DNA of 61,026 nucleotides, filler included. It is 7 parts of 7 records of this genome, joined end to end, with 100 filler letters (N's around TTAATTAATTAA, not from the genome) between each part and the next. Parts side by side here need not be neighbours in the genome. Positions count along the whole stretch, not along the records: positions 9,611 to 25,239 come from SRR31156797_31157; 6 more parts are not named here. One strand, written 5' to 3'. This document shows, piece after piece, positions 9,511 through 30,834 of the stretch; position 1 is the first letter of the stretch, and the number at the start of each line of letters is the position of its first letter. The translations under genes and the position numbers were made by a program. The notes below the pieces were generated by a model. It did not search any database. It had not been told where the DNA came from and worked only from the letters and a program-made list of their open reading frames with translations.

Positions 9511-9610
9511 NNNNNNNNNNNNNNNNNNNNNNNNNNNNNNNNNNNNNNNNNNNNTTAATTAATTAANNNNNNNNNNNNNNNNNNNNNNNNNNNNNNNNNN
9601 NNNNNNNNNN
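9511..9610. other. Artificial contig spacer
   Basis: 44 N + TTAATTAATTAA (stops in all six frames) + 44 N. Confidence 0.98.
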
Positions 9611-9900
9611 AGATGCTGGCCATCGGCCGGGCCCTCATGGGGAATCCCCTCCTCATGCTGCTGGACGAGCCGAGCCAGGGGCTTGCGCCCCTTCTGGTGT
9701 ATGAGGTGATACAGCCCATTCTTCTGGTATGTGTTGAGGAAGGCCTCACCCTCCTGCTGGTGGAACAGAATTACCGTATGGCCTTGAAGGTGGCATCCCG
9801 CCATTACCTCATGGGGATCAAGGGTAAGATAGCAGGGACTGCCACTTCAGAGGAGTTGACGGCGGACGGCGATATTATTAAACGGCACCTCTCGGTCTAA
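9611..9900 (+). CDS. Branched-chain amino acid-type ABC transporter ATP-binding subunit (LivF-like), 3' part
   Basis: 'MLAIGRALMGNPLLMLLDEPSQGLAP...LLVEQN' (Walker B/D-loop, LivF-type switch). Confidence 0.88.
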
Positions 9901-9930
9901 AGATCGGGATGAAGGTGCAGGAGGTGTAAA

Positions 9931-10953: not shown

Positions 10954-10966
10954 TACCGTGATTTGG

Positions 10967-11004
10967 GCGAATGCCCCGTACCCCCTGAAACGGGGCATTC
11001 GCCG
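10967..11004 (+). terminator. Hairpin downstream of the MtaA-like gene
   Basis: GGCGAATGCCCCGT ... ACGGGGCATTCGCC 14-bp perfect stem; weak U-tract. Confidence 0.6.
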
Positions 11005-11858
11005 GCAAATTTAAAAGCCAGACCCACCGAACTGCCGGGCGGGTTGGCTCAGGTTTAGAGTACTGGGGCAGATAGATGCAGAAGGTCGTTAATGGTGTCT
11101 TCTTTCATCCCTCAACTCCTTGTTGGTTGGGTCGGGCCTCCAAAAGCTTCAATAACCTGGTATACCCGAGATTTTCCGCAATAGACCACAGGGCCTCGCC
11201 CAAAACGTCATCCTTTTCGGTGATATGAACTTTTCCATGATCTCCTCCCTTCGGATTCAATCAGTTTCCTATCCCCATCATAAACATATCCCTTATGAAT
11301 CAATTTTCTCAACCATACCTTTTCTGAAAAACATTCTAAATAAGATAAGTATTTTCATGCTTTAAAAGCAAGCCCTGATCATCAATACGTGTCCCGGAAC
11401 TCTCTATGGATGAGCACTTGCAATTTCCTCATGCATCAATTGACATCATCCCCCGTTTTCGTTAGATACATAACCATACTTTTTCATCCAGAAAAACTCC
11501 GATAAATCAAATCCTCAAATATGAGATCGACAGGAGGGTCGAAAGCAGAAGCGCCGGGGAGACTTCCGATCATTGAAGGTGCGGGTAGGTCGCTGGCATA
11601 CGGGTGCCAAACCGGGACCGTTGGGAGCTTTGTTCCAGGGTTCTGTCGAGAAGGGATGTTGTGGACCGCCTTTCCATGCCGTGGTGAAAGACGCCGTGTC
11701 CGAAATCCTCGCGGCCTTTCGCGAATGCCTAATTTAAACGGTTGGGCCAACCAGGCCTGGAAGAAAATTTCCAAGAAAAAAAAGGCAACCCGGAAATTAC
11801 CACCTTCCTATCCCTTGGCGTTACGAACATTTTCGACCCTATCCCATGAGGCAGTCCC

Positions 11859-13865
11859 ATGTGTAAGAACAGGAAAACCACATCTCCCCAGCAGTCCATG
11901 ATCCGGATTGTGGGGGAAATGGCGGGCCTTCTGACCCATGCCCGAATTCAGGATGACAACTTGAGGCAGACCCTTCGAATCCTCTGCCACGGCATTTCCG
12001 CCCATGCCGGTTATTTGTTCCGAAAAGTATTTGATCCATCCGGGGCATTTCAGATTGAGGCCATGAGCCGCTGGGCCGCCCATGATGAGGATGCCGCCAT
12101 GACCCTCTCGGCGGATGATATTCCGGATTCCATCTGGGAAGCCCTTGAGAAAAAAGAGATCGTTCAATCCGGGGAGTTCATTTCCCACAATCACCTTGGG
12201 GACCTATTCCTTCCTGTGTTTATGGGAGAAAATCTATCCGGGTTTATTCTTATTTCAGGTGCCCAAGCGGCAAATCCGACCCGGGAAGTTAAAGCCTTTC
12301 TGATAGCGGTGATCGGTGTTTTTGAACTCTGGTTCAGTAAAATGAATGAATCGAAAAAGGCCGATGATTTGCTTGATTTTGTGCCGATTCCCATGTTCAG
12401 GGTAAACACCGACGGCATTACAACGGCTTGGAACAGTGCTGTGGAGGAGATGACCGGATGGAAGGCCCCACGAGTCGTCGGCAAAGGAAATTATGAATAT
12501 GCCCTGCCTTTTTATGGTATACGACGTCCCATCATCGTCGATCTAATCATGAAGCCGGACCCCAAATGGGAAGCGACCTATCTGGATTACAACAGGGAAG
12601 GAGATATGGTTCGGTCCATGGCATTTATCCCGATGATAACGGGTGCGGGCCGATTTGTGACCGGCAACACGGCACGGATGCGCGATTTTAACGGGCGGGT
12701 TTTCGGGGCGGTTCATCATATTCGCGATATTACCCACGAACGGCAGGTGGAAAGCAGGCTGAAGAGTTCCGAGTCCATGTTCAAGACCATCACCGATTAT
12801 GCCGGACTTGGGATCGCGCTCTTTGGCAGAGAAAGAGCGTTCTATTACAACGAGCGATTTGAGAATCTCCTTTCGGCCTCTGGAAAGGAGATCGACTTGC
12901 AGGATTTATTGAATGCGGTTCCCAAGGAGGAACAGGAAAAAGTCCGGTTCCGCCTGCAAAAAATGTTTGACGGAACGGAAAAGGGGCCGCTGAGGTTGGC
13001 ACTTCAAGTAAAGACGGAAGCCCGGGATCTTCATTACAGCAGCTATGCTCAAATGTTGGAATATGAAGGCTCTCCCACCATATGTTTTATTCTGGATGAT
13101 ACGACCGAACTGAAGGAGATGGCCGAGAAGGCACGGTTGAATGAATTGAAATTGTACCATGAGGATCGTCTGGCCGCTCTGGGGACCATGGCCGCGGGAA
13201 TTGCCCATGAATTGAACCAACCCCTGAACACCATTCGGGTGGTCACGGACGGTCTTTTCTTCGGAAAAGAGGAGGGGTGGTCTTTGGATGAAGAGGAACT
13301 CTTCGACAGCCTGGAGATGGTGACGCAACAGGTTGCAAGGATGAGTGAGGTCATATGGAATATTCGGAATTTCGCCAGAGAGGATCGCATGCCGCTTTCT
13401 TTGGATGTCCATGCGAATCAAGCCATTAATAACGTATTTTCCATGATCGGAAGCCAGCTTGAGGCACATGGTATTCGGGTTCGTAAAGAATTGGAAAACA
13501 AACTTCCCCCTTTGAGGGCGCACCCAAACCGTTTGGAACAGGTGATCATGAACCTGGTGGTGAATGCCCGCCAGGCCTTGGACGAATGCGGTCATGATCA
13601 TAAGGAGCTTTGGGTGCAGACCGGTGTGAGAGACAAAGCGGTGTTCATCAAGGTTGGCGACAATGCCACAGGTATACCCGAGGACCTAAAGCGTAAGATA
13701 TTTGATCCCTTTTTTACCACCAAAGAAGCGGGAAAGGGAACAGGTTTGGGGCTCACCATTACCCAATCCATTATCGAAGAGTTTGAGGGGCGGATTGAGG
13801 CATTCAATAATGAAAAGGGCGGGAGCACTTTTGTGGTAACGGTCCCTGAAGGAGGGCAGGTTTGA
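11859..13865 (+). CDS. Cytoplasmic PAS-domain sensor histidine kinase (NtrB-like)
   Basis: GAF-like N-terminus, two PAS domains, H-box 'GIAHELNQPL', N-box 'QVIMNLVVNA', 'DPFFTTK..GKGTGLGL'; no TM helix; start codon uncertain (could be ATG 11898). Confidence 0.93.
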   Translation: MCKNRKTTSPQQSMIRIVGEMAGLLTHARIQDDNLRQTLRILCHGISAHAGYLFRKVFDPSGAFQIEAMSRWAAHDEDAAMTLSADDIPDSIWEALEKKEIVQSGEFISHNHLGDLFLPVFMGENLSGFILISGAQAANPTREVKAFLIAVIGVFELWFSKMNESKKADDLLDFVPIPMFRVNTDGITTAWNSAVEEMTGWKAPRVVGKGNYEYALPFYGIRRPIIVDLIMKPDPKWEATYLDYNREGDMVRSMAFIPMITGAGRFVTGNTARMRDFNGRVFGAVHHIRDITHERQVESRLKSSESMFKTITDYAGLGIALFGRERAFYYNERFENLLSASGKEIDLQDLLNAVPKEEQEKVRFRLQKMFDGTEKGPLRLALQVKTEARDLHYSSYAQMLEYEGSPTICFILDDTTELKEMAEKARLNELKLYHEDRLAALGTMAAGIAHELNQPLNTIRVVTDGLFFGKEEGWSLDEEELFDSLEMVTQQVARMSEVIWNIRNFAREDRMPLSLDVHANQAINNVFSMIGSQLEAHGIRVRKELENKLPPLRAHPNRLEQVIMNLVVNARQALDECGHDHKELWVQTGVRDKAVFIKVGDNATGIPEDLKRKIFDPFFTTKEAGKGTGLGLTITQSIIEEFEGRIEAFNNEKGGSTFVVTVPEGGQV

Positions 13866-15316
13866 ACATCCTTTTAATAGACGACGAACCGGTTGTGCGA
13901 AAGAGTCTTTCCCATTTCTTGACGAAATCGGGCCACCGGGTCGTCTGTGTCGCTGATGGGATGGAAGGTCTTCGGGAATTTCATTCCCAGGACTTCAACC
14001 TGGTTATTACGGATATCCGCATGCCCCGCATGGACGGCCAGGAATTCCTGAGGCGCACCAAAATGATCGAGCGAACTCCCGTGGACATCATTGTAATTAC
14101 CGGTCACGGGGATATGGCCAACGCCATCAAGGCCTTGAAATACGGGGCCTACGATTACCTTCTGAAACCGATCGATGTCCGGGAATTGACCATTACCATG
14201 GAACGTTGTGCGGAGTATACGGCCCTGAGGACCAACTACACCCGTCTCAAGAAGGAATTCAATGATCAGGTTGAAGCCAAAACGCGGACGGTTCTGGGGC
14301 AGGCGGAACAGTTGCGGGCCGCCTATCTCGAAGAAATAGGGCTGGACCGTCTGTGCGTCTATTCCGAAGCCATGCGGCAAGTTATTCATCAGGCAGAGCA
14401 GTATAGTTCGGAAAAGGAGATTCCCGTTTTGATTGAGGGGGAGAGTGGGACCGGAAAGGAACTGGTTGCCAGGTACGTCCATCACTACGGGCAGGCAAGC
14501 GCGGTTGTGCCGTTTGTGGCCATAAACTGCGGGGCCGTATCACGGGAGCTTTTTGAAGGAGAGCTCTTCGGTCATGAACCGGGCGCCTATACCGGTGCCA
14601 CGGTCAAAGGTCGCATGGGTAAGTTTGAAGCGGCCCATGGCGGCACCATTTTTCTGGATGAAATCGGTGAGATGCCCCTCACCCTCCAGGTAAAGCTTTT
14701 GCGGGTCCTGGAAGAAAAAAGGATTTGTCGACTTGGCGGCGTCAAGGAAATCCCGGTGGATATCCGGATTATCTGCGCCACCAATAAAGACTTGGCCAGG
14801 GAGGTGGATGAGAAGCGATTTCGTCTGGATCTATTCTATCGGATCAACACGGGGAGCATCCGCATACCTCCCTTGAGGGAACGTCGCGACGATATCCTGC
14901 CGTTGGCCCTTCATTTTATAAACAGAGCCTATGCGCGCAGGGGGAAGTCATTTGATCGGTTTACCCCGGAAGCAGAGGCATTCCTCTTTTCCTTCCCTTG
15001 GCCCGGAAATGTTCGTCAGCTTAAAAACGCCATGGAACATGTGGCGTTGACGGCGGTCCTGGACCGCGTCGGTAGGGAAGAACTTTCCTTCATGGACGAG
15101 CAGAATCATGCAATGGCGCACACCATTAAGAGCAGGCCCGTTTTAAGGCTTGAGGAATTTAATTTGCCGGAAGACAATCTGGATCTGGAAAGGCTGAACC
15201 AACACATTATCCTGAAGGCAATGGAGAAGAACAATGGAAACCAGACAAAAACGGCTCAATATCTGGGCATCTCCCGAAGGGTCCTTCAGGGACGGCTGAA
15301 AAAATGGGGCCTTTGA
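13862..15316 (+). CDS. sigma54-dependent response regulator (REC-AAA+-Fis HTH, NtrC family)
   Basis: REC 'DIRMP', Walker A 'GESGTGKE', 'GAYTGA', 'FLDEIGEM', 'WPGNVRQL', C-terminal HTH; overlaps the kinase stop. Confidence 0.96.
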   Translation: MNILLIDDEPVVRKSLSHFLTKSGHRVVCVADGMEGLREFHSQDFNLVITDIRMPRMDGQEFLRRTKMIERTPVDIIVITGHGDMANAIKALKYGAYDYLLKPIDVRELTITMERCAEYTALRTNYTRLKKEFNDQVEAKTRTVLGQAEQLRAAYLEEIGLDRLCVYSEAMRQVIHQAEQYSSEKEIPVLIEGESGTGKELVARYVHHYGQASAVVPFVAINCGAVSRELFEGELFGHEPGAYTGATVKGRMGKFEAAHGGTIFLDEIGEMPLTLQVKLLRVLEEKRICRLGGVKEIPVDIRIICATNKDLAREVDEKRFRLDLFYRINTGSIRIPPLRERRDDILPLALHFINRAYARRGKSFDRFTPEAEAFLFSFPWPGNVRQLKNAMEHVALTAVLDRVGREELSFMDEQNHAMAHTIKSRPVLRLEEFNLPEDNLDLERLNQHIILKAMEKNNGNQTKTAQYLGISRRVLQGRLKKWGL

Positions 15317-15414
15317 GGGAAAGCTGCCCTTTCAAGTCCGCCATTTGATGCCGCACTCTCCATCAGCAAGATAGAAACACCATATTATCTCCATTCTGAG
15401 GGTCATTTTTTTCT

Positions 15415-15460
15415 GCCCCAAACCGGGCAAAAGCACCGTTTGGTGCGCCCCCATCCGTGC
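15415..15460. promoter_or_regulatory. Putative upstream activator sites: three tandem GC[A/C]C-N6-G[G/T]GC palindromes
   Basis: GCCC-caaacc-GGGC (15415-28), GCAC-cgtttg-GTGC (15433-46), GCCC-ccatcc-GTGC (15447-60), about 75-120 bp upstream of the -24 element. Confidence 0.55.
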
Positions 15461-15493
15461 AACGCTTCGCCAACCTCAAAGTCTCGGTCTTTT

Positions 15494-15506
15494 CAATTCA
15501 CTGATT
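15494..15506 (-). promoter_or_regulatory. IHF binding site
   Basis: AATCAGTGAATTG on the minus strand fits WATCAR-N4-TTR; it lies between the UAS and the -24/-12 element. Confidence 0.6.
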
Positions 15507-15535
15507 TCATAACGTTTTATATCCGTGCCCGGTTT

Positions 15536-15551
15536 TGGCATCCCTGTTGCA
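15536..15551 (+). promoter_or_regulatory. sigma54 (-24/-12) promoter of the methyltransferase/TRAP operon
   Basis: TGGCATCCCTGTTGCA with correct GG-N10-GC spacing, directly downstream of a sigma54 activator gene. Confidence 0.85.
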
Positions 15552-15596
15552 CTGATGAACAACCATTGAATCTCAACTCCGGATATATCATTTTTT

Positions 15597-16391
15597 ATGT
15601 TGATCATCGCTGAAAGGATCAATGCCTCCCGCAGGTATATTGCATCGGCTATTTCTTCTGAAAACAGATCGTTTATTCAGAACGAGGCCAAGGCCCAGGC
15701 CTTGGCCGGCGCGGACTACATTGATGTGAACGCCGGAATATTTGAAAGAGAAGAAGCAGACCGGCTCAAATGGGTGATTGAGGCGGTTCAGGAGGTAACG
15801 GATGTGCCGTTGTCCATCGACAGCCCCGATCCCAAAGTCATCAAGGCGGTTCTGGGCAGTGTAAATGAGAGGCCCATCATAAATTCCATTACCCTTGAAC
15901 CCACACGGTTGGAAGGTATTTTGCCCCTGGTGGCCGGGCATAACACCAAAGTGATCGGCCTCTGTCAGTCGGGAGATACCACCGCCGAAACCGTTGAGGC
16001 CAAGGTTAGGCTGGCCGGCCGGTTGGTGGAACGGGTTACCGCCGCGGGCATTTCCCTGGATGACCTCTATATCGATCCTTTGGTATACCCCATCGCCACC
16101 AATCCCCAATCCGCCATGGCGACCATGCAGGCCATCGAGCGGATCATGACGGAGTTTCCCGGTGTTCACACCACCTGTGGTTTGACCAACGTCTCTTACG
16201 GGCTTCCGAACCGAAAACTCATCAATCGAATTTTTCTTGTTGCGGCCATTTCCCGCGGTTTGGACACGGCTATTTTGGACCCAACGGACACACAATTGTA
16301 CGCCGCCATGAAAGCGGCATGGATGGTGTCCGGTAAAGATGACTTTTGCTCGGAATATATCGGCGCATTCAGGGAGGGGCGTTTCGAATAA
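15597..16391 (+). CDS. Methylcorrinoid:tetrahydrofolate methyltransferase (AcsE/MT2, pterin-binding family), copy 1
   Basis: 'MLIIAERIN', 'GADYIDVNAG', 'PLSIDS', 'INSIT', 'IDPLV', 'GLTNVSYGLP.RKLINR.F'. Confidence 0.92.
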   Translation: MLIIAERINASRRYIASAISSENRSFIQNEAKAQALAGADYIDVNAGIFEREEADRLKWVIEAVQEVTDVPLSIDSPDPKVIKAVLGSVNERPIINSITLEPTRLEGILPLVAGHNTKVIGLCQSGDTTAETVEAKVRLAGRLVERVTAAGISLDDLYIDPLVYPIATNPQSAMATMQAIERIMTEFPGVHTTCGLTNVSYGLPNRKLINRIFLVAAISRGLDTAILDPTDTQLYAAMKAAWMVSGKDDFCSEYIGAFREGRFE

Positions 16392-16508
16392 AGGTTTCGG
16401 TAACAAACCGTTGTGCCGACCCTTACAGGGAAGAAAGGAGGTGCGTTTCGACAATCGGCTAGGGTGTTTTGTAGGTTATTCATTCAAATGAAAAGGAGGA
16501 CATGTCAA

Positions 16509-17540
16509 ATGAAAAAAAACAGGGTTATCATACTACTTATTGCCGCCTTAATTTCGTTTTCTTTTCTCATAGGCCCGGCCATGGCCGCGGACAAACCCAT
16601 AAAGTGGAAAGCACAGTCCATGTGGAGCGCGGCGGAGTTGTCGCACAAAACCTTTGTGGACTTCTGCGCAAGGGTCAAGGTCCTTACAAACGGGCGGTTG
16701 GAGATAACACCCTATTCCGCCGGCACCCTCGTACCCACATTCGAGGCCCTGGATGCGCTTCAGAATAACGTCATTCAATGCATGCATATGTGGTCCGGTT
16801 ATTTCAGCGGCAAGGAACCCGGGTTTTCACCCATCTCCGATCTGGTCGCCGCTTACTCAGACCCCTGGCAGAAGGATGCCTGGATGTACTACAAGGGGGG
16901 CTGGGAGATGCTCAACGAGATGTACAAGCCTTACAACGCCTATGCGGTGGGGTGGATGTTCTGGGGCATCGAATCCATGGTTTCCACACAGTCCATCAGC
17001 AAGATGGAGGATTTCAAAGGCTTGAAAATGCGGGTGCCCCAAGGTATGACGGCCATGCTGTTCCAGGAACTGGGCGCCTCCGTGGTGGTGCTGCCGGGTG
17101 GAGAGGTTTACTCGGCCCTTGATAAGGGCGTGATCAACACCAGCGACTGGGCTTCCCCTTCCATGAACCAGCGGATGGGTTTTTTCCAGGTGGCCAAATA
17201 TACCAACTATCCGGGTTTCCACTCCATGCCCATGGCCAGTTTTACCGTCAACATCAATGAATGGAACAAACTGCCCGATGACATCAAACAGATCCTGAAA
17301 ACAGCCTGTCGTGAATGGTGCTGGGACAGCATTGAACGGATTGCCATCGACGATATCAGGGCTCTGAAAGAGATGAAAGAAAAGGGTGTCACGGTCCAGA
17401 CCTGGAGCAAAGAGGACCTGACCCGGGTCCGTGCCAAAGCCATGAATATGTGGGATGAGTTCGCCAAAAAGAGCCCCATGGCAAAGAAGGTCATCGATTC
17501 ACAAAAAGAATGGCTGCGGGAACTGAAGTTGATTGATTAG
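16509..17540 (+). CDS. dctP: TRAP transporter substrate-binding protein
   Basis: AGGAGG RBS, signal peptide ending AMA, 'KGLKMRVP', 'GGEVYSALDKGVI'; followed by DctQ/M. Confidence 0.93.
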   Translation: MKKNRVIILLIAALISFSFLIGPAMAADKPIKWKAQSMWSAAELSHKTFVDFCARVKVLTNGRLEITPYSAGTLVPTFEALDALQNNVIQCMHMWSGYFSGKEPGFSPISDLVAAYSDPWQKDAWMYYKGGWEMLNEMYKPYNAYAVGWMFWGIESMVSTQSISKMEDFKGLKMRVPQGMTAMLFQELGASVVVLPGGEVYSALDKGVINTSDWASPSMNQRMGFFQVAKYTNYPGFHSMPMASFTVNINEWNKLPDDIKQILKTACREWCWDSIERIAIDDIRALKEMKEKGVTVQTWSKEDLTRVRAKAMNMWDEFAKKSPMAKKVIDSQKEWLRELKLID

Positions 17541-17659
17541 CCGATTAAGGTGAACATCGGGGAGAAAGGGGGGCCGCGGCCTTTCTTTCTTCATCCTGCC
17601 CATGAAAAAAATGAAGCCGGTGAATGGGCCTCATTGCAATGTGGCCTTGGGCATAGGGA

Positions 17660-18166
17660 GTGAGTATGAAGAAGCTATTGTCTTTCATTGATGCCGTATC
17701 CACTTTTGTGGGAAAGGCCGGGAGCTGGCTTATCCTGTTGGTTGTGGGGTTCATCGTCTATGAGATCGTGATGCGGTATGTCTTTCACCTTCCCACCCTT
17801 TGGGTCAGCGAAGCAATGGTTTTCGGGTGCGGCATGAGTTACGTGCTGGGTGCCGCCTGGACCCTTAGGGAGAACCGTCACGTGAAAATCGATTTGATTT
17901 ACGGCAGGCTGACGGCCAGGCGACGGGCCGCCATAGATGCGATCACCTACCTCTTTTTCGCCCTCTACATGGGGGTGTTCTTGTGGGCCGCCGGCAAATA
18001 CACGTGGCAGTCCATACTGGTGGGGGAGACCACCAGTTCGGCATGGGACCCACCGGTTTATCCCATTAAAATAGCCCTGGTCGTGGGAGCAGCCCTGCTG
18101 CTGCTTCAGGGAACCGCAAAATTCATTCGGGATCTGCACTTCGCCATCAAAGGTAGGGAACTATGA
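17660..18166 (+). CDS. dctQ: TRAP transporter small permease
   Basis: 4 TM; 'EIVMRYVF..PT.W..E', 'HVKIDLIY'. Confidence 0.93.
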   Translation: MSMKKLLSFIDAVSTFVGKAGSWLILLVVGFIVYEIVMRYVFHLPTLWVSEAMVFGCGMSYVLGAAWTLRENRHVKIDLIYGRLTARRRAAIDAITYLFFALYMGVFLWAAGKYTWQSILVGETTSSAWDPPVYPIKIALVVGAALLLLQGTAKFIRDLHFAIKGREL

Positions 18167-19479
18167 GCATTGAATTCATTACCATTCTGCTGCTGGCTAC
18201 TTTCATTTTGCTGCTGGTGACCGGTCTGCCCCTGGCCTGGGTGATGGGCGCCACGGCGGTCATTTTTTCCCTGGTCCTGTTCGGCCCCAACGTGATGGTG
18301 ATGATGGTGGGCAGGGTTTACCGAATGATGCTCAACTACGCCCTTGTTGCCGTGCCGTTGTTTATTTTTATGGCCGCAATACTGCAACAATCGGGCGTGG
18401 CCGATCAACTGTTTAAGGCCGTCTATATATGGTCCGGGCCTTTCAGGGGCGGGCTGGCCATCGGTACCGTTATCTCCTGCATCATCATGGCCGCCATGGT
18501 GGGCGTTGTGGGGGCTGAAATCGTGACGTTCGGCATGATCGCCCTGCCCGGCATGCTGGCGCGGAAATATGATGGGAAGATCGCCCTGGGAAGCATCTGT
18601 GCCGGTGGCGGCATGGCCACCTTGATCCCCCCCAGTGTTGTCTTTATCGTCTATGCCATGACCGCGGGCGCTTCCGTGGGGGAACTGTTTATCGCCGGCA
18701 TCATTCCGGGCCTTCTCTTGGGTGCCCTGTTCATCGGGTATATCGTTGTGGCCACCTGGCTCAAGCCGGAAATGGCCCCTGCGGCCCCTGAAGGGGAACG
18801 TAACATTCCACTTGGAGAAAAACTGACCTTGCTCAAAGGGCTGATCATGCCCGGGCTCCTTGCCGCAATGGTCCTGGGATCCATCTATGCCGGTGTGGCA
18901 ACACCCTCGGAAGCGGCCGGGATCGGTTGCCTGGGGGCGCTCATCTCCGCCGCCATTAACCGCAGACTGACCTTTGAGGGTGTCAAAACGGCGCTCTACG
19001 ATACCGTGAAAGTCTCATGCATGTTGGCCTGGTTGTTTTTTGGGGCGCAGACCATCATCGGCGTCTACACCCTTGCGGGCGGCGATCAATTCGTCAGGAA
19101 TATGGTTATGGCGCTCCCCTTCGGCAAGTGGGGCGCCATCATCGGCATGCAGTTGATCCTGATTTTTCTGGGCATGTTCCTGGACTGGATCGGGATCGTT
19201 TTGCTGACCATGCCCCTTTTTGTACCCATTATTCTGGACCTGGGTTTCGACAATGTCTGGTTCGGTGTGGTTTTCTGTATGAATATGCACATTTCTTACT
19301 TGTCCCCGCCATTTGGACCGTCCATTTTTTATCTGAAGAGCGTCGTAGGGGATGAGATACCGGTGGGCGCCATCTACAGGGCAAACATGCCGTATCTGTG
19401 GCTTACGGTGGTTGCCCTGATCATCGTCGTTGCCTTTCCGGAATTGTCTCTGTGGCTCCCGAGCGTTATGCTCAAATGA
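18163..19479 (+). CDS. dctM: TRAP transporter large permease
   Basis: 'LVAVPLFIFM', 'GGLAIG', 'LIPPS', 'ATPSEAA', 'LSPPFG'; ATGA overlap with dctQ. Confidence 0.95.
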   Translation: MSIEFITILLLATFILLLVTGLPLAWVMGATAVIFSLVLFGPNVMVMMVGRVYRMMLNYALVAVPLFIFMAAILQQSGVADQLFKAVYIWSGPFRGGLAIGTVISCIIMAAMVGVVGAEIVTFGMIALPGMLARKYDGKIALGSICAGGGMATLIPPSVVFIVYAMTAGASVGELFIAGIIPGLLLGALFIGYIVVATWLKPEMAPAAPEGERNIPLGEKLTLLKGLIMPGLLAAMVLGSIYAGVATPSEAAGIGCLGALISAAINRRLTFEGVKTALYDTVKVSCMLAWLFFGAQTIIGVYTLAGGDQFVRNMVMALPFGKWGAIIGMQLILIFLGMFLDWIGIVLLTMPLFVPIILDLGFDNVWFGVVFCMNMHISYLSPPFGPSIFYLKSVVGDEIPVGAIYRANMPYLWLTVVALIIVVAFPELSLWLPSVMLK

Positions 19480-19538
19480 GTCCTAATTTGAAACGATTAC
19501 ACAACCATGAAGGAAATAGAATCTAAAGGAGTAAACGG

Positions 19539-20630
19539 ATGGACATGAAACCTGATTTTGATGGACGATTCAAGCGCGTGGTCAACCACCAGGAGGCGGA
19601 TCGGGTGCCGCTGTGCGAGGTGCTGATCGCCTATCCCATTCAGAGTCAATTTCTGGGACGCATGGTGACGTCCGAGGACGTGGAAGCCCAGGTGGAATTC
19701 TGGGCCAAGGCGGGATATGATTTCATCCCCATCCCGGTCAGCATGATGACCCCCGGCGGGGTGACGGCCGAATCCGGGATCACGAAAGTCCTTCGGGAGA
19801 AGGTGCAGAAGGAAAGGCCGGATGAGACCGATCCAAAGGCATGGAACCTGGAATTCACCAGCTTCATCCATGAGCGGGAGGATTTCGAGGCGTTTCCCTG
19901 GGAAGCGGCGGCCGAACTCGATTTTACCAACCTTCATAAGGCGGAACCCCTGCTTCCGGAAGGGATGAAGGTCGTTGCCGTATCCGGCAAGATCTTTACC
20001 CTGACCTGGATGCTCATGGGGTTCCAGAATTTCTCCATGAAGCTCATTCTGGAACCCCAACTGGTGGCGGATGTCTTCAAAAAGGTGGCTGAAATTCAGT
20101 TCAGCGCCCTTGAGCGCATTCTGTCGAAAGACCATGTGGGGGCGGTCTGGGTTGTGGACGACATTGCCTTCGGTACCGGCCCCATGATCTCTCCCGACGC
20201 TTTTCGCGAGCACGTCTTCTTCTGGTACGCCAAAATGGCGAAGCGATGCCATGAATCGGACCGGATCTTTATTATGCATACGGACGGCGATGTAACATCC
20301 TTGATGCCGGATATCATAAAGACAGGCATAGATGTGTTGCAGCCCATCGACCCCACGTGCATGGATATCGTCAAAATGAAAAGGGAATATGGCGATCGCA
20401 TCACCCTTGTGGGAAACGTGGCCAATGAACTGCTCCAACGCGGCTCAACGGAGGATGTGGCGGAATACACCCGTCACCTCCTCCGTGAGGTGGCGCCCGG
20501 CGGCGGATTCTGCGTGGGTTCGGGCAATTCCGTTCCGGACTGGGCAAAATTCGAAAATTACATGGCCATGCGGGATACCACCCTCAAGCATGGTGCCTAT
20601 CCCATTTCCATCGGAAAGGAAAATTTATGA
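19539..20630 (+). CDS. Uroporphyrinogen-decarboxylase-like (URO-D/MT1-type) protein, probable substrate:corrinoid methyltransferase
   Basis: 'DRVP', 'DDIAFGTGPMISP', 'MHTDG', 'GDRITLVGNV', 'GGGF..GSGNSV'; inside a corrinoid operon. Confidence 0.82.
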   Translation: MDMKPDFDGRFKRVVNHQEADRVPLCEVLIAYPIQSQFLGRMVTSEDVEAQVEFWAKAGYDFIPIPVSMMTPGGVTAESGITKVLREKVQKERPDETDPKAWNLEFTSFIHEREDFEAFPWEAAAELDFTNLHKAEPLLPEGMKVVAVSGKIFTLTWMLMGFQNFSMKLILEPQLVADVFKKVAEIQFSALERILSKDHVGAVWVVDDIAFGTGPMISPDAFREHVFFWYAKMAKRCHESDRIFIMHTDGDVTSLMPDIIKTGIDVLQPIDPTCMDIVKMKREYGDRITLVGNVANELLQRGSTEDVAEYTRHLLREVAPGGGFCVGSGNSVPDWAKFENYMAMRDTTLKHGAYPISIGKENL

Positions 20631-21271
20631 GCGATCAACTCCAACGGATAAAGGACGCCGTGATCACACGGCAAAAGAACGAGATTCAGGGGCTGGTGAA
20701 AGCGGCCGTTGATGAAGGCCTTCATGTGAACAGGATCATAGAAAGTGGTCTCATCGCGGCCATGGATGTGGTGGGGGAACGGTTTGCGAAAGGCGATATT
20801 TTCGTGCCCGAGATGCTCGTATCCGCTCTTACCATGAAGCTTGGCCTGGAAACGGTGAAGCCTTTCTTGAAGGGCGGTGAGACAGAGTCCAAGGGATCCG
20901 TGGTCATGGCTACGGTCAAAGGCGACCTTCACGATATCGGGAAGAACTTTGTCATCATGATGCTGGAAGGGGCGGGTTTTCAGGTTACGGATTTGGGCGT
21001 GGATTTGAGCGTGGAAAAACTCATGGCTGAAATCGAGACCATAAAGCCGGACATCCTGGGCCTTTCGGCTCTTTTAACCACTACCTTGTCGGAAATGGAG
21101 CTGGTCATAGAGGAACTTAAGGCCAATGGTTTGAGGGACAAGGTAAAGGTGATGGTGGGAGGCGCGCCGGTCAAAAAAACCTTTGCCGAAAGGATCGGAG
21201 CCGACGGTTACGGCGCCGATGCCACCGAGGCGGTAGCAACGGCCCGGGCATTGGTGGAAAGAACCCGTTGA
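20627..21271 (+). CDS. Cognate corrinoid (B12-binding) protein, MtaC/MttC-like
   Basis: Cap domain 'FVPEML', D-x-H-x-x-G 'GDLHDIGKN', 'GLSALLTTT', 'VGGAP', 'IGADGY'. Confidence 0.95.
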   Translation: MSDQLQRIKDAVITRQKNEIQGLVKAAVDEGLHVNRIIESGLIAAMDVVGERFAKGDIFVPEMLVSALTMKLGLETVKPFLKGGETESKGSVVMATVKGDLHDIGKNFVIMMLEGAGFQVTDLGVDLSVEKLMAEIETIKPDILGLSALLTTTLSEMELVIEELKANGLRDKVKVMVGGAPVKKTFAERIGADGYGADATEAVATARALVERTR

Positions 21272-21296
21272 GGGTCTGGAAAGGAAACAAGAAGGT

Positions 21297-22091
21297 ATGC
21301 TCATCGTCGCTGAAAGAATTAACTCGTCACGAAAGTCCCTTGCACAAGCCATGGAAATTCAAGACAAGGGATTCATCCAAAATGAGGCCAGGATGCAGGC
21401 CGAAGCCGGGGCCGATTATATCGATGTGAACGCCGGTTCCTTCATCGGCGAAGAAGCGGAACGGCTTCAATGGGTGATTCGGGCCGTCCAGGAAGTCACC
21501 CTTCTACCCCTATTCATCGACAGCCCGGATCCGGAAGTCATCAAGGCGGTTTTGCCCCTTCTGCACAGATCGCCCATGGTCAATTCCATCACCATGGAAC
21601 CGGTCAGGCTGGAAGGCATTTTGCCGCTTGTGGCCGAACAGGGGGCCAAGGTGATCGGTCTGTGTCAATCCGAGGATACCCTGGCCGAAACCGCGGACGA
21701 AAAGGTCCGGCTGGCCGAACAGCTGGTGGATGAGGTTTCAAAAACCGGCATCCCCCTGGATGACCTCTATATCGATCCCCTGGTCTATCCCATTTCATCC
21801 AATCCCCTTTCCGCTCTTGCCGTTCTGGAAGCCGTTGAGCGGATCATGCAGGAATTCCCCGGTGTTCATACCATCTGCGGCCTGACCAATGTGTCCTACG
21901 GGCTCCCCAGACGGAAACTCATCAACCGGACCTTTCTGGTATCCGCCGTTACCAAGGGGCTTGACGCCGTCATCATGGATCCCACGGACAAAACGCTTTT
22001 CGGCGCCCTCAGGGCGGCGCTGGCGGTGGTTTCAAAAGATGAATACTGTATGGAATATATTAACGCCTTCAGGGATGGGCGTTTGCCGTAA
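21297..22091 (+). CDS. Methylcorrinoid:tetrahydrofolate methyltransferase (AcsE/MT2 family), copy 2
   Basis: Same motifs and the same 264-aa length as 15597-16391; aligns without gaps. Confidence 0.92.
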   Translation: MLIVAERINSSRKSLAQAMEIQDKGFIQNEARMQAEAGADYIDVNAGSFIGEEAERLQWVIRAVQEVTLLPLFIDSPDPEVIKAVLPLLHRSPMVNSITMEPVRLEGILPLVAEQGAKVIGLCQSEDTLAETADEKVRLAEQLVDEVSKTGIPLDDLYIDPLVYPISSNPLSALAVLEAVERIMQEFPGVHTICGLTNVSYGLPRRKLINRTFLVSAVTKGLDAVIMDPTDKTLFGALRAALAVVSKDEYCMEYINAFRDGRLP

Positions 22092-22113
22092 TGAATAGAT
22101 TAAGGAGTCGAAT

Positions 22114-24063
22114 ATGTTGACCCACAGAGAGCGAATATTGAAAGTGGTGAGAGGCGAACTGGTCGACAAAATACCATGGGTGCCCAGAATCGATCTCTGG
22201 CATAACGCCCATCACTTGTCAGGAACCCTGCCGAAAAAATACAAAGGGTTGAGTGTGGAGGAGATACATCGCGCGGAAGGGTGGCCTTTGCACAAGATGA
22301 TCCCCGAATATCTGAAGCCGGAAAATCCCGAGGATATTGTGCATCGGGGTATCGGGCTCTATCGCCTGAAGGAGTTTCCCTATGATTTTGAATTTTCTTC
22401 CGATGTAAACATCCGGGTGGAATATGAGGATGATGGCGACGAGAAAATGACCCATGTGGAATATCATACGCCCGTGGGGATGGTGAGTGTCAGGCACGGA
22501 ACCACCAATGAGATGCAAAGATCCGGGGCCTCCATTACGTGGGTCAAGGAACCCGCCATCAAGCGCTTGGAAGATTATTCCGTTTTGGCGCACATCTTTG
22601 GGAATCTTACCCTGAAACCGGCTTACGAGCGTTTTCTCCGCTGGAAAAGGGGCGTTGGGGAGGACGGGGTTGCAGTGGGGCAGGGGCTTGGGATCGCATG
22701 TTCTTCTCCCATGCATTTCATCCAAAAAACCTTCCTGGGCGCCTCGGCTTTCTATTATCACTATCATGACCACAAAAAAGAGATGGGAGAACTGACCGAG
22801 GCCCTGGCGCATGCCTATGATCAGTTGCTCCCCATCCTTGCGGCTTCCCCCGCGGATGTGGTCTTGTGGTCCGCAAACGTGGACGACATGGTGACCTACC
22901 CCGCCTATTTTGAAAAGGAGATCATGCCCTGGTGCCGGAGGGCCTCTGAAACGCTCCATGCCGAAGGGATCCTTCTCGCCATGCACCCGGACGGGGAAAA
23001 CCGCGGGCTGATGGATTTGATCCCCGCATGCGGCATGGACATGGCGGATGCCGTAACCCCTTACCCCATGACCAAGGTGACCATCGATGAATATTATGAT
23101 AGATGGTGCCGGTCCGGCAATCTGACCATCCACGGCGGTATTCCGGAGGTCATGCTCCTTGAGGAATCCACCTCCTGGGACGACCTTAAAGAGTATCTCG
23201 ACCATATGTTCAAGGTCATATGGCCCGGGAAGCGGCTGATCGCCTCCATAGGGGATACCAGTCCCCCCAATACCCAATTTGAACGATTGGTCTATATCGG
23301 AGAACGCTTTGAAAAAGAAGGGAGGCTCCCCTTGGAAGCAGGATCCATGAGACCCATTACGGAGAGCCGGATCAAAGAGACCGGGGCGCGTTTAACCAAG
23401 AAGGCCGCTTCCCCGTCCCATGGAGAATTTCAGGCCGTTCGGGAGCGGGTGCTCAAGGGGGATCACAAAAATATCAAGGAAGAAATTCAGAAGATGCTTG
23501 ACAATGGTTTCAAGGCGCGGAATATCCTTCAGCAAGGGATGCTTTCCGCCATGGAAGTCATCGGTGAAAAATTTAAAGACGGGAGTGTCTTCATTCCCGA
23601 AGTCTTTCTCTCAGCCAGAGCCATAAACGAGGGCCTCTTGGTTCTGCAACCTCACCTGGTAAGTCTTGACAAAGAAAGCAGGGGGACGATCATGATCGGG
23701 ACTGTTCGAGGGGATCTTCATGACATCGGGAAGAATATGGTTCTGACCATGCTGAAAGGGGTCGGTTTTGATACGGTGGACCTCGGCATAAATGTTAAGA
23801 CGGATGATTTTGTTCGTCAGGTGGCGGAGACGAAACCGGATATCCTCGGCCTATCCGCCCTTCTGACAACCACCATGCCCGAGATGGAAGGGGTGATTGA
23901 CGCCCTTAGGGGGAACGGGTTGAGAGAAAATCTCAAAATTATCGTCGGAGGCGCCCCGGTCAACGGGAAGTTCGCCGAACGGATCGGGGCGGACGGGTAT
24001 GCCCGGGATGCGGGTGCTGCCATACCCCTGGTTAAACAACTGCTGCGCGGTCCATCCGTATAG
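22114..24063 (+). CDS. Fused URO-D-like methyltransferase + C-terminal corrinoid-binding protein
   Basis: N-terminal ~410 aa URO-D-like ('MHPDGEN', 'TIHGGIP'); C-terminal B12 cap and binding domain 'GDLHDIGKN...GLSALLTTT...VGGAP'. Confidence 0.88.
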   Translation: MLTHRERILKVVRGELVDKIPWVPRIDLWHNAHHLSGTLPKKYKGLSVEEIHRAEGWPLHKMIPEYLKPENPEDIVHRGIGLYRLKEFPYDFEFSSDVNIRVEYEDDGDEKMTHVEYHTPVGMVSVRHGTTNEMQRSGASITWVKEPAIKRLEDYSVLAHIFGNLTLKPAYERFLRWKRGVGEDGVAVGQGLGIACSSPMHFIQKTFLGASAFYYHYHDHKKEMGELTEALAHAYDQLLPILAASPADVVLWSANVDDMVTYPAYFEKEIMPWCRRASETLHAEGILLAMHPDGENRGLMDLIPACGMDMADAVTPYPMTKVTIDEYYDRWCRSGNLTIHGGIPEVMLLEESTSWDDLKEYLDHMFKVIWPGKRLIASIGDTSPPNTQFERLVYIGERFEKEGRLPLEAGSMRPITESRIKETGARLTKKAASPSHGEFQAVRERVLKGDHKNIKEEIQKMLDNGFKARNILQQGMLSAMEVIGEKFKDGSVFIPEVFLSARAINEGLLVLQPHLVSLDKESRGTIMIGTVRGDLHDIGKNMVLTMLKGVGFDTVDLGINVKTDDFVRQVAETKPDILGLSALLTTTMPEMEGVIDALRGNGLRENLKIIVGGAPVNGKFAERIGADGYARDAGAAIPLVKQLLRGPSV

Positions 24064-24089
24064 AAAAAATTGAGAGGAGGAAGGGTCGA

Positions 24090-24782
24090 TTGATGCCGGG
24101 GGAGAAAAAGGGGAATACGGTTATAGTCGCCTGCCGGGTGATGGCGCCGGAACTGGAGTATGTTCGGGCGCAAAAGATCGGCGTGGAGATTCGCTACCTG
24201 GACCAGGGATTACACCGAACACCCGACAAGATGGCGGATCTAATCCAGGAACAGATCGATGAGGCGGCCCACTACGCCGGGCGGGTGGTCTTGGGATATG
24301 GGCTCTGCTCCAACGGGATCGTGGGTGTCACGGCCAGGCGCCAACCCCTTCTGGTCCCCCGATGTCACGATTGCATCGCTTTTTTCATGGGGTCTTTAGA
24401 GGCTCATAAAAAAGCTTTTAAGGAAAGACCCGGGACATATTATCTGACGCCCGGGTGGATTATGGAAGGAAAAGACCCTTTGGGCATCGTCGAAGATGAC
24501 TATATGCAACGGTTTGACCGGGAAACGTCCGTGTGGGTCATGGAGGAGGAATTAAAGCATTATACCCATATGGTCCTGATCAATACGGGCGTGGGAGATT
24601 TGGATGAGCCCAGGGACAGGGCCATGGAAAACGCCCGTTTTTTTAAGAAACAATATGAGGAGATCCAGGGGAATCTGAATTATTTCAGGAAGCTTGTTGA
24701 AGGCCCCTATACGGATCAGGATTTCTTTTCCCTTCCGCCCTGCCAAGCTGTTACCCAGGAGATGTATCTTGAAAACGGTTAG
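24090..24782 (+). CDS. DUF1638 domain protein (corrinoid-system associated)
   Basis: 'IVAC.V...E', 'GLH.TP', 'LGYGLCSNG', 'PRCHDCIAFF.GS', 'GTYYLTPGW'. Confidence 0.88.
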   Translation: MMPGEKKGNTVIVACRVMAPELEYVRAQKIGVEIRYLDQGLHRTPDKMADLIQEQIDEAAHYAGRVVLGYGLCSNGIVGVTARRQPLLVPRCHDCIAFFMGSLEAHKKAFKERPGTYYLTPGWIMEGKDPLGIVEDDYMQRFDRETSVWVMEEELKHYTHMVLINTGVGDLDEPRDRAMENARFFKKQYEEIQGNLNYFRKLVEGPYTDQDFFSLPPCQAVTQEMYLENG

Positions 24783-24905
24783 GATGTTCCGGTTCCTGGC
24801 TGTCCCACGGATCGTGACATCTGGTTAGGTGAAAATTCTTCGCCAATTTTGAAACGAGCCGGGTTTCCTCCTGAAACACTAAAATATCTTTATTTCTGAT
24901 GATTT

Positions 24906-25239
24906 TCAATTGATCCGTTTTTTTCCCTCCCACTCCTTTTCCCGGAGTTTGAACTTCTGTATTTTACCCGTTGCGGTTTTCGGCAGCTCACCGAATTCCA
25001 CATGTTTGGGCGCCTTGAAACGGGCAAGGTGTTTTTTGGTAAATGAAATGATATCCTCCTCGGATGGGCTGCTGCCGGGTTTGGGTACGACAAAAGCCTT
25101 GGGAACCTCGCCCCATTTCGGGTCCGGTACCGGAATGACGGCCACTTCCAGGACATGAGGATGCCCGTATATGGCGTTTTCAACTTCAACAGTGGAAATA
25201 TTTTCACCACCGCTGATGATGATATCCTTTTTCCTGTCC
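24906..25239 (-). CDS. Acyl-CoA synthetase/AMP-binding enzyme, 3' part (truncated by contig end)
   Basis: Frame extends to 'DRKKDIIISGGENISTVEVE...DPKWGEVPKAFVV...LPKTATGKIQK'. Confidence 0.92.
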
Positions 25240-25339
25240 NNNNNNNNNNNNNNNNNNNNNNNNNNNNNNNNNNNNNNNNNNNNTTAATTAATTAANNNNN
25301 NNNNNNNNNNNNNNNNNNNNNNNNNNNNNNNNNNNNNNN
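25240..25339. other. Artificial contig spacer
   Basis: N44-TTAATTAATTAA-N44. Confidence 0.98.
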
Positions 25340-30734: not shown

Positions 30735-30834
30735 NNNNNNNNNNNNNNNNNNNNNNNNNNNNNNNNNNNNNNNNNNNNTTAATTAATTAANNNNNNNNNN
30801 NNNNNNNNNNNNNNNNNNNNNNNNNNNNNNNNNN
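30735..30834. other. Artificial contig spacer
   Basis: N44-TTAATTAATTAA-N44. Confidence 0.98.

Follow-up and report, generated by a model that had tools for sequence, protein, structure and literature searches.

A TRAP-coupled, sigma54-linked operon with two corrinoid methyltransferase modules as a probable demethylase system for an imported carboxylic acid

Which imported acid would give up its methyl group to an operon that joins a tripartite ATP-independent periplasmic (TRAP) importer to two sets of corrinoid methyltransferase components? In anoxic sediments, C1 units and reducing power can be drawn from the methyl groups of organic acids, and anaerobic demethylases are known for methylamines, quaternary amines, methanol, methyl sulfides and aromatic methyl ethers. 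The operon studied here lies in a window of 61,026 nucleotides, by which we mean the whole stretch of DNA analysed. It encodes a PAS-domain sensor kinase, an NtrC-type activator, the importer DctPQM, a corrinoid protein (CP), two folate-type methyltransferases (MT2a and MT2b), a uroporphyrinogen decarboxylase (URO-D)-fold protein presumed from its predicted structure to be the substrate:corrinoid methyltransferase (MT1), a second such domain fused to a corrinoid domain (Fus) and a DUF1638 protein. The sequence-only reading of this DNA had proposed an MT1/corrinoid protein/MT2 system that feeds tetrahydrofolate, with a TRAP importer for uptake and a two-component sigma54 switch for control. Homology, fold and linkage supported this proposal. 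We consider it very probable that the operon carries out corrinoid-dependent demethylation of an imported carboxylate to tetrahydrofolate. The fuller reading, a cobalamin-dependent demethylase operon for an imported methylated 2-hydroxy or 2-oxo carboxylic acid, appears reasonably likely.

The window contains six N44-TTAATTAATTAA-N44 linkers (9511-9610, 25240-25339, 30735-30834, 39729-39828, 46472-46571 and 51649-51748) and is therefore a chain of separate contigs from a metagenome-assembled genome (MAG) or draft assembly. Only contig 9611-25239 provides usable operon context, as the other pieces are not contiguous with it. The G+C content runs from about 0.37 to 0.58 over the window in 2-kb bins and differs from piece to piece, so the pieces may stem from more than one organism. 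Genes were identified by open reading frame (ORF) calling with Pfam and NCBIfam scans. All 11 genes first read from the sequence were recovered at their positions on the plus strand (Table 1), and the packing was indeed tight, with intra-operon gaps of -4 to 119 bp.

Table 1. Operon genes, promoter element and upstream methyltransferase gene on contig 9611-25239 (window positions)
Feature	Position	Strand	Length	Supporting matches
MtaA/CmuA-family zinc methyltransferase	9931-10953	+	340 aa	PF01208 201.8 bits; H238-x-C240 ... C314/C317
PAS sensor histidine kinase	11859-13865	+	668 aa	HisKA, HATPase_c, PAS domains
NtrC-type sigma54-dependent response regulator	13862-15316	+	484 aa	Response_reg, Sigma54_activat 214 bits, AAA_lid_14, HTH_8
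Sigma54 -24/-12 element	15536-15551	+		TGGCAT-N5-TTGCA, in the 280-bp gap after the activator gene
MT2a, MeTr/AcsE-type methyltransferase	15597-16391	+	264 aa	Pterin_bind 74 bits; NF005719 308.2 bits
DctP, TRAP solute-binding protein	16413-17540	+		PF03480 173 bits
DctQ, TRAP small membrane subunit	17660-18166	+		PF04290 95.5 bits
DctM, TRAP large membrane subunit	18163-19479	+		PF06808 262 bits; TIGR00786 307 bits (cut-off 268)
MT1, divergent URO-D/MtaA-fold protein	19539-20630	+	363 aa	PF01208 86.8 bits, residues 139-348
CP, corrinoid protein	20627-21271	+	214 aa	B12-binding_2, B12-binding; D100-x-H102-x-x-G105
MT2b, second MeTr-type methyltransferase	21297-22091	+	264 aa	NF005719 313.1 bits
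Fus, fused URO-D-like/corrinoid protein	22114-24063	+	649 aa	PF01208 25.5 bits, B12-binding_2, B12-binding
DUF1638 protein	24090-24782	+	230 aa	PF07796 150.9 bits

The methyl-transfer parts were identified by homology or fold. CP and the corrinoid unit of Fus each have the predicted cap and Rossmann B12-binding domains with a DxHxxG motif, which by homology indicates His-on cobalamin binding; in Fus the motif (D534-x-H536-x-x-G539) is invariant in 26/26 sequences of the Fus alignment (A2). Both units match MttC, MtmC and the Desulfitobacterium hafniense cobalamin-binding protein 4jgi. CP scored 187 bits against TIGR02370 and also matched MtgC/MtbC-like models, all below their cut-offs. MT2a and MT2b are 67% identical to each other, and both exceed the curated cut-off of 259 bits of NF005719/PRK07535 (methyltetrahydrofolate:corrinoid/iron-sulfur protein methyltransferase), as expected of pterin-binding methyl-corrinoid:tetrahydrofolate methyltransferases. 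Of the solved structures, 4o0q/4o1e/4o1f (E 6.8e-52) are nearest to MT2b, with the MeTr structures 2yci, 2e7f and 1f6y from Carboxydothermus and Moorella next in line. We take 4o0q to be the O-demethylase MT2 of D. hafniense; the structure table names it only "Dihydropteroate synthase DHPS". The MT2s also match the folate domain of MetH. Because they pass NF005719 and resemble MeTr structures, tetrahydrofolate is well supported as the methyl acceptor.

MT1 and Fus are the divergent parts. PF01208 covers only the C-terminal two thirds of MT1, and by sequence MT1 matches a single solved protein, MtaA, at E 0.001. Its AlphaFold2 model (predicted local distance difference test, pLDDT, 91.4) gave MtaA 4ay7 as the top Foldseek hit, with a template modelling (TM) score of 0.65-0.69 and 16% identity, followed by URO-D structures. 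Fus consists of a URO-D-fold domain (about 1-410), a linker and a corrinoid-binding domain (about 437-645). In its model (pLDDT 77.5) the N-domain resembles URO-D 1j93 (target TM 0.62) and the C-domain MttC 7xcn and 4jgi. The Fus N-domain and MT1 are 26% identical over 149 residues. In the predicted structures both proteins show the URO-D/MtaA fold, and many loci have them next to a corrinoid unit or joined to one. As first noted from the sequence, no MttB or MtaB family match was found among the scanned ORFs of the contig.

The metal site sets these proteins apart. Where an H-x-C ... C zinc site is expected, MT1 has invariant H247-x-D249-G and N330-S331 (MT1 alignment, A1), and the Fus N-domain has invariant PRIDLWHN (24-31), H291-x-D293-G-E295-N and G380-D381-T382 (A2). 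Neither keeps a conserved cysteine at the zinc-ligand positions; the MtaA-like proteins of such clusters do keep H-x-C ... C. Against TIGR01463, the MtaA/CmuA family model, MT1 scored 46.2 bits (cut-off 235.4), and Fus gave no match at E 0.001 or better. On score and zinc motif alike, both proteins are thus predicted to lie outside the MtaA/CmuA family. Distant URO-D proteins that adjoin CP, MT2 and RACo genes, including one from cultured Clostridium thailandense (L129), carry H-x-C, and the H-x-D proteins therefore form distinct groups. MT1 and Fus would represent two uncharacterised, cysteine-free MT1 lineages. We infer a metal site built of harder ligands, which would suit activation of an oxygen leaving group chelated along with a carboxylate.

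Relatives of Fus were collected from one-genome-per-species contigs. A first scan with Fus gave 30 loci, and a profile scan with A2 over 185,579 species genomes gave 190 Fus relatives, from which the best 80 stretches were kept, corresponding to 74 loci. These loci are numbered here (L001, L006 and so on), and the closest relative genome, G001, served as a proxy for the source genome. For neighbourhood clustering, 1041 ORFs from the first 76 loci were used (L016 and L031 are one contig). The order of genes from kinase to DUF1638 is identical to that of the window in L006, and near-identical sets occur in L001, L017, L018, L021-L025 and others, so that the gene order is conserved across MAGs. 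The merged Fus/MT1 cluster was present in 66 loci, DctM in 26, DctP in 22, CP in 20, DctQ in 17, MT2 in 13, NtrC in 9, a 336-aa zinc MtaA-like protein in 8, and the kinase and DUF1638 in 7 each. The MT1 gene lies directly 5' of the corrinoid-protein gene in at least 10 loci, nearly always so. For MT1, 740 database matches were named at most "uroporphyrinogen decarboxylase"; for Fus, more than 120 homologues (66-94% identity), all unnamed or generically named, came from Deltaproteobacteria/Desulfobacteraceae MAGs and an Olavius-associated Delta 1 MAG. The Protein Atlas returned only generic "URO-D family" clusters.

All 74 kept Fus loci are MAG records, and scans of the species genomes with Fus alone or with A2 found no cultured carrier. 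The labels of these records span several Desulfobacterota orders, Rhodospirillaceae/Thalassospiraceae, Burkholderiales/Rubrivivax, Syntrophaceae, Spirochaetota and others. A scan with MT2 reached cultured Desulfosporosinus, Acetobacterium and C. thailandense. The clusters there use MttB-type or H-x-C URO-D MT1s, and these carriers have no Fus and no MT1 homologue above 30% identity. In MAGs with the Rhodospirillaceae label, Fus occurs as two to four tandem paralogues beside a TRAP system (L012 2304-11974, L016 4539-16020, L028 7866-11974); these are 57-59% identical to the Fus of the window, the TRAP genes are divergently transcribed, and no MT2 or DUF1638 gene was found within 10 kb. The alphaproteobacterial neighbourhoods L012, L014 and L016 had no shared catabolic theme. 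In two other loci, genes of the MttB family and of the dimethylamine-methyltransferase-like (Dimeth_PyL) type are found within a few kb of Fus (L032 1847-4412, L021 15649-17226), so several corrinoid systems cluster in some relatives' genomes.

The two modules of the operon come and go independently. Fus may stand alone or have a TRAP system as its sole partner; it also occurs with only the kinase and activator (L008), with only MT2 and DUF1638 (L007) or without MT1 (L020). In L004, L026, L045 and L080 one protein joins the MT1-like domain to a corrinoid domain, and in L086, L090 and L128 stand-alone versions of the Fus N-domain adjoin CP. What counts as a "set" is thus one MT1-corrinoid module, which may be split or fused. 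Since MT1 and Fus are not inherited as a pair, the earlier inference that two sets remove two methyl groups in sequence is weakened. Independent modules, presumably paired as MT1 with CP and as the two halves of Fus, would fit a range of substrates as well as sequential steps.

A carboxylate as the imported compound is indicated by the TRAP genes. P, Q and M subunits are encoded together, and Arg207 of DctP, within a K-x-R motif, is kept in at least 95% of 29 aligned DctP sequences, as expected of a TRAP importer; we take this residue to be the carboxylate-binding arginine of the TRAP binding-protein family. The DctP start is more likely Met33 (16509), because the homologues are 343-344 aa long and the signal peptide comes after Met33; the only hydrophobic segment spans residues 35-60. 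Among solved structures, DctP comes closest to the Thermus thermophilus lactate-binding protein (2zzv, E 1.5e-59), the ketoacid-binding 7ug8 and TakP (2hzk). Two further Fus-linked DctP types, from a delta and an alpha MAG, were also compared. The three types are mutually only 27-33% identical, and all match the same ten solved proteins, including 2zzv, 2hzk, 7ug8, 4pet, 5cm6, 4yic/4yzz and 4pe3. All three are predicted to fall in the lactate/pyruvate/2-oxoacid subfamily. In the portion of PMC5812351 consulted, TakP is described as binding pyruvate and other alpha-keto acids, and the Thermus protein as binding lactate.

The regulatory genes fit an inducible system. The kinase has no hydrophobic segment and is thus cytoplasmic, as originally read; homologues at 75-86% identity hold the same position in L006 and L017. 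The activator gene overlaps the kinase gene by 4 bp. The sigma54 element lies 46 bp upstream of the first ATG of MT2a. A loose sigma54 pattern gave 13 matches in the window against 9.5 expected, which is not above chance, so this pattern alone means little. L006 has the same element 63 nt upstream of its MT2a gene, and in L017, L026, L007 and L008 variants of the form GG-N10-GC stand ahead of the gene that opens the operon. Of the 8 loci inspected, 5 have a sigma54-type element no further than 85 nt from that gene. With an activator carrying an AAA+ sigma54-interaction domain and a GG-N10-GC promoter, the operon is predicted to be sigma54-dependent, and the promoter of the sequence-only reading stands. 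In relatives without the two-component system, a GntR/FCD regulator takes over its position; these regulators scored highest against NanR, LldR, PdhR and GlcC, all below the model cut-offs. Scans for sigma70 promoters and terminators gave site numbers not above those of shuffled sequence. An Rfam scan of the contig gave zero matches at E 0.1 or better, and hence no cobalamin riboswitch.

The substrate itself cannot be read from the sequence of the operon, as had been stated from the start, and we turned to the genes that accompany it in relatives. Homologues of LarA-superfamily nickel-pincer isomerases were found at 8 of 155 loci, and 7 of these 8 adjoin a methyltransferase component. At five loci the isomerase gene lies inside the co-oriented operon, in the CP-Fus gap (L021, L030), in the MT2-DUF1638 gap (L022, L082) or after DctQ (L025). 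The L022-type isomerase scored 460.8 bits against NF052515 (cut-off 400); the other isomerases scored highest against lactate and malate racemases, below the cut-offs. According to the passages of PMC7583248 consulted, inversion at C2 of a 2-hydroxy acid is the reaction of all LarA homologues that have been characterised to date, and its Supplementary Table S1 associates "group22" with TRAP and sugar-acid genes, where the match to the NCBIfam "group 22" numbering is unconfirmed.

Further genes of 2-hydroxy-, 2-oxo- or sugar-acid metabolism were present within 8 kb in 18 of the 76 loci. In L040 a gene for a VorB-type 2-oxoacid:ferredoxin oxidoreductase separates TRAP from Fus, and in L066 such a gene is found upstream of Fus; a GlcD-like FAD dehydrogenase and a CCG Fe-S protein flank Fus in L032 and L033, and L069 has LutB, LutC and a LarA homologue near Fus. 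D-2-hydroxyacid dehydrogenases, CoA transferases and CoA ligases are near Fus in several loci, and enolase-superfamily dehydratases occur in L009, L010 and L074. In L024, a gene of the altronate/galactarate-dehydratase family (97-1257, +; GD_AH domains, no SAF) ends 8 bp before an MtaA-like gene; this family also includes sulfolactate sulfo-lyase. These neighbours constitute guilt by association in relatives, and they fit a chiral aliphatic 2-hydroxy or 2-oxo acid much better than dimethylsulfoniopropionate (DMSP), methylmercaptopropionate (MMPA) or benzoates. Tentatively, and at somewhat under even chances, we assign the substrate to the aliphatic 2-hydroxy/2-oxo monocarboxylates that carry an O- or S-methyl group. 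Our best guesses are O-methylated sugar acids, 2- or 3-methoxy C2-C4 acids, 4-methylthio-2-hydroxy- or -oxobutanoate and 3-methylthiolactate.

Several observations weigh against this assignment and the wider reading. None of these 2-hydroxyacid genes is on the contig of the operon itself; they come from the 18 of 76 loci of relatives, in other genera, and some of them sit on the opposite strand in their loci. Methylated aliphatic 2-hydroxy acids are not known to be abundant natural substrates. The likeness of DctP to lactate and pyruvate binders (E 1e-40 to 1e-60) does not fix a ligand, and the sole basis of the proposed metal site is alignment. Zinc MtaA-like genes, present in many of the clusters, would equally fit methyl-thioether chemistry. 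No RamA/RACo-type ATP-dependent reductive activase was found among the scanned ORFs of contig 9611-25239, which ends 457 bp past the DUF1638 gene, and the earlier description of the system as self-contained was therefore too strong. Finally, no DsrA scored above its cut-off in the relative genome G001, so sulfate respiration is not to be assumed.

With these points in mind, the following course of events is proposed. The cytoplasmic PAS kinase would sense an inducer, and the phosphorylated NtrC-type activator would promote open-complex formation at the sigma54 promoter. The TRAP system would import the carboxylate substrate by way of the carboxylate-binding arginine of DctP. Co(I) would then make an SN2 attack on the substrate methyl group, in the split module (MT1 and CP) and, in cis, in the fused module (Fus). 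Here the invariant His/Asp/Asp(Asn) site may hold a hard divalent metal, chelated by the carboxylate of the substrate and a neighbouring oxygen, and so activate the leaving group. MT2a and MT2b would pass the methyl group from methyl-Co(III) to tetrahydrofolate, and methyl-tetrahydrofolate would enter C1 metabolism by oxidation or through acetyl-CoA synthase. Co(II) formed by occasional oxidation would be repaired by a RACo/RamA-type activase encoded elsewhere, with the DUF1638 protein probably taking part. The direction of transfer, demethylation, is our preferred reading of this scheme.

The best surviving alternative, in our view unlikely, is an ordinary anaerobic aryl-methyl-ether O-demethylase of the Acetobacterium, Moorella or Desulfitobacterium type that acts on imported methoxylated aromatic acids, for example vanillate or syringate, its two MT1s differing in ring specificity. 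Such enzymes (OdmABCD/Vdm of Acetobacterium dehalogenans, MtvABC of Moorella thermoacetica, Dhaf_4610-4612 of D. hafniense) use the same three-component scheme and make-up, a URO-D-superfamily methyltransferase I with a corrinoid protein and a pterin-binding methyltransferase II. The best solved relative of MT2b (4o0q/4o1e) is presumably one of their MT2s, the corrinoid units match 4jgi of D. hafniense, and genes for HGD-D-type subunits and for an aryl-CoA-ligase-like enzyme lie on another contig of the bin. PMC10418091, seen in part, places OdmB and VdmB in the UroD superfamily. The MT1s of the operon, however, are very divergent, with the mentioned 16% identity to the nearest solved URO-D-fold methyltransferase and H-x-D in place of cysteine ligands, and they are far from the H-x-C URO-D protein of L129 (27% identity to MT1, 96 bits to the MT1 profile). 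One of them is fused to a corrinoid domain, and the operon adds TRAP, sigma54 control and DUF1638 and has no activase on its contig. The aromatic-type genes of the window sit on other contigs, the three DctP types belong with lactate, pyruvate and 2-oxoacid binders, and in relatives the neighbouring genes code for enzymes of 2-hydroxy, 2-oxo and sugar acids rather than of ring reduction. A methoxy-aromatic acid, offered as an example in the sequence-only reading, is thus not supported as the substrate; the evidence points instead to an aliphatic 2-hydroxy or 2-oxo acid.

Sequential S-demethylation of DMSP via MMPA to 3-mercaptopropionate, or of a related sulfonium or thioether acid, with one module for each step, seems quite improbable. 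This was the other example given at first reading, and the presence of two MT1/CP/MT2 sets had suggested it. Demethylation of DMSP to tetrahydrofolate by sulfate reducers has been reported, and we know of no genes for it; the close homologues in Desulfobacteraceae MAGs and the Olavius-associated Delta 1 MAG would suit such a source. Zinc MtaA-like genes occur on the contig and in 8 relatives' loci, and these resemble methanogen methylthiol enzymes (MtpA; bioRxiv 10.1101/548461, in the portion seen). DMSP and MMPA, however, are achiral 3-substituted propionates with neither a 2-hydroxy nor a 2-oxo group, which leaves the nickel-pincer isomerases within relatives' operons and the lactate/2-oxoacid class of DctP unexplained. 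MT1 and Fus have no thiolate-stabilising cysteine ligands, the modules are not retained as a pair, and MAGs with the labels Burkholderiales, Rubrivivax, Syntrophaceae and Spirochaetota have members of the Fus family too. The methylthiol systems of methanogens (MtsA/B, the MtsD/F/H fusions, MtpA/MtpC) likewise have URO-D-fold methyltransferases that act with, or are fused to, corrinoid domains. Their acceptor is coenzyme M, in contrast to the two folate-type MT2s here, and MT1 and Fus are without zinc-thiolate ligands.

The zinc MtaA-like gene lies 906 bp upstream of the kinase gene on the same contig and was absent from the gene list of the sequence-only reading. Its product scored 299 bits against NF004889 (cut-off 244), 244.3 against TIGR01463 (235.4) and 319 against NF040654 (below the cut-off of 400). 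With this score and the zinc motif it is predicted to belong to the MtaA/CmuA family. A 62% homologue stands directly before DctPQM-CP-Fus in L024, and an accessory role in the system is possible. Zinc MtaA-like proteins would suit a thioether step, and the H-x-D proteins an ether step. Upstream, at 9613-9900 (+), lies the 3' end of a gene that by eye resembles an ABC-transporter ATPase (LLLDEPS, Walker-B-like; no Pfam match at E 0.01). Because this fragment ends 30 bp before the MtaA-like gene, the latter may belong to an upstream transporter operon.

A biosynthetic role, in which a split MetH-like system would use methyl-tetrahydrofolate as donor to a thiol or other acceptor, as in the roseobacter split methionine synthase/MtgC, is very improbable. 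DUF1638, a corrinoid protein and a MeTr-like folate domain form the set tied to the split methionine synthase in those portions of PMC5764234 and PMC12478193 that we consulted; the MT2s match the MetH folate domain, and a zinc MtaA-like thiol methyltransferase is nearby. The roseobacter glycine-betaine system (MtgBCD with RamA and DUF1638) shares with the operon a stand-alone corrinoid protein, a folate-binding methyltransferase and DUF1638. As described there (PMC12478193), however, it has an MttB-family MT1 and a tie to homocysteine methylation, and the operon has neither. Pfam and NCBIfam scans found no homocysteine-binding domain in any cluster protein. A dedicated TRAP importer with a two-component/sigma54 or GntR/FCD switch is typical of catabolic operons, two MT2 copies and several MT1 paralogues suggest flux over housekeeping, and the relatives' neighbours are catabolic dehydrogenases and oxidoreductases.

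Two dehalogenating systems come close to the operon in their parts. Like Fus, CmuA has an N-terminal URO-D-fold domain and a C-terminal corrinoid domain, and CmuB is a separate pterin-binding folate methyltransferase (PMC9768040, in the sections seen). Fus has neither a TIGR01463 match nor H-x-C ... C, and the TRAP importer makes a non-volatile acid the likely substrate, unlike that of CmuA. The mec cassette, compared here by its description in the same sections and not by sequence, has a two-component system, a corrinoid protein, several URO-D proteins and a pterin-binding MT II, and most cassettes have a DUF1638/RamA pair. The likeness to mec that was first noted thus stands as a parts list (kinase and regulator, corrinoid protein, URO-D proteins, pterin-binding MT2, DUF1638) and fails in the types of kinase, regulator and transporter. 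As there described, the mec kinase carries a PocR domain and the mec regulator is a short receiver, where the operon has a PAS kinase and an NtrC/sigma54 activator; mec further has a MecE/MecC/MecI URO-D trio, a cation transporter where the operon has a TRAP importer, and no fused MT1-corrinoid protein corresponding to Fus. A corrinoid-dependent dehalogenase of the CmuA or mec kind acting on an imported halogenated acid, which the fused architecture and this overlap in parts might suggest, is highly implausible given the TIGR01463 results for Fus (no match at E 0.001) and MT1 (46 bits against 235), a kinase with a PAS domain and no PocR match, no halide-related gene found among the neighbours, and the carboxyalkyl-cobalamin that Co(I) attack on a halo-acid would presumably leave, not a known substrate of MeTr-type MT2s.

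Type 1 mlp clusters (Kountz and Balskus, PMC10418091), as far as the consulted text describes them, combine several UroD-superfamily homologues with a corrinoid protein and a RACE/RamA activase, the latter as in relatives of the operon. By definition they have no tetrahydrofolate methyltransferase, they are found mainly in Firmicutes, and their Mlps group with coenzyme M methyltransferases. The operon has two folate MT2s and a TRAP importer, and only its accessory MtaA-like protein is of the coenzyme M type. The catalytic subunits of the operon thus appear to match none of the characterised demethylase clades, their separation from OdmB/VdmB/MtvB being drawn without a shared tree.

The full-text literature searched, excluding subscription journals and preprint supplements, describes neither the cluster nor a TRAP-coupled corrinoid system nor corrinoid-linked LarA homologues, in agreement with the first suggestion of an undescribed pathway. 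The operon follows the familiar three-component B12 logic and appears new in its cysteine-free MT1 lineages, in its coupling to a dedicated high-affinity TRAP importer and, in relatives, in its links to nickel-pincer racemases and to enzymes of 2-hydroxy and 2-oxo acids. A bolder claim, held only as a conjecture, is that MT1 and Fus found a cysteine-free (His/Asp/Asp) branch of the URO-D fold that demethylates aliphatic ethers or thioethers of 2-hydroxy/2-oxo acids, alongside lactate/2-oxoacid-class TRAP importers and nickel-pincer racemases. If true, an anaerobic B12-dependent route would exist for methyl groups whose only known removal is by oxygenases, or for which none is known, and by record titles this branch would span Desulfobacterota, Alpha- and Betaproteobacteria and Spirochaetota MAGs. 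Identification of the substrate would add an entry route to folate-bound C1 metabolism, give a function to two large groups mis-annotated as "uroporphyrinogen decarboxylase family" and provide a way into the study of DUF1638. Since the parts are small and soluble and can be expressed one by one, the question is open to direct test.

By analogy, the DUF1638 protein is presumed to be an accessory for corrinoid maintenance or reactivation. In Phaeobacter inhibens, transposon genetics tied DUF1638 and a RamA-like protein to B12-dependent methionine synthase (PMC5764234), and in Ruegeria a DUF1638 protein was induced with RamA on methylated osmolytes (PMC12478193), both according to the portions available. 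RACo adjoins the system in L021, L030, L026 and L035, and G001 gave five matches to RACo and a single one to acetyl-CoA synthase. In G001, one in-frame TGA is present in each of three matches, two of the URO-D family and one of RACo (C10 173180-174169, C16 42440-43429, C23 101940-102677); it may encode selenocysteine or mark a broken gene. Small proteins of 225-229 aa in L022 (7333-8022) and L026 (15252-15929), inside or beside the methyltransferase clusters, weakly resemble the activation domain of B12-dependent methionine synthase and may be a further reactivation accessory.

At the end of the contig, an ORF on the minus strand (24890-25239), cut by the contig end, looks by eye like the C-terminal part of an acyl-CoA ligase and had no Pfam match at E 1e-5. 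CoA ligases also adjoin Fus in L009, L052, L059 and L063. FolD was found on another contig of the same bin. On a different contig, window positions 32446-36247 (+) encode two HGD-D subunits of the 2-hydroxyacyl-CoA dehydratase/benzoyl-CoA reductase type, followed by an AMP-binding enzyme with AMP-binding_C_2; this looks like a possible aryl- or hydroxyacyl-CoA pathway and is unlinked to the operon. On a further piece, at 40032-43141 (-), a sulfatase gene adjoins one of the radical-SAM/SPASM type, the arrangement commonly seen for an anaerobic sulfatase with its maturase.

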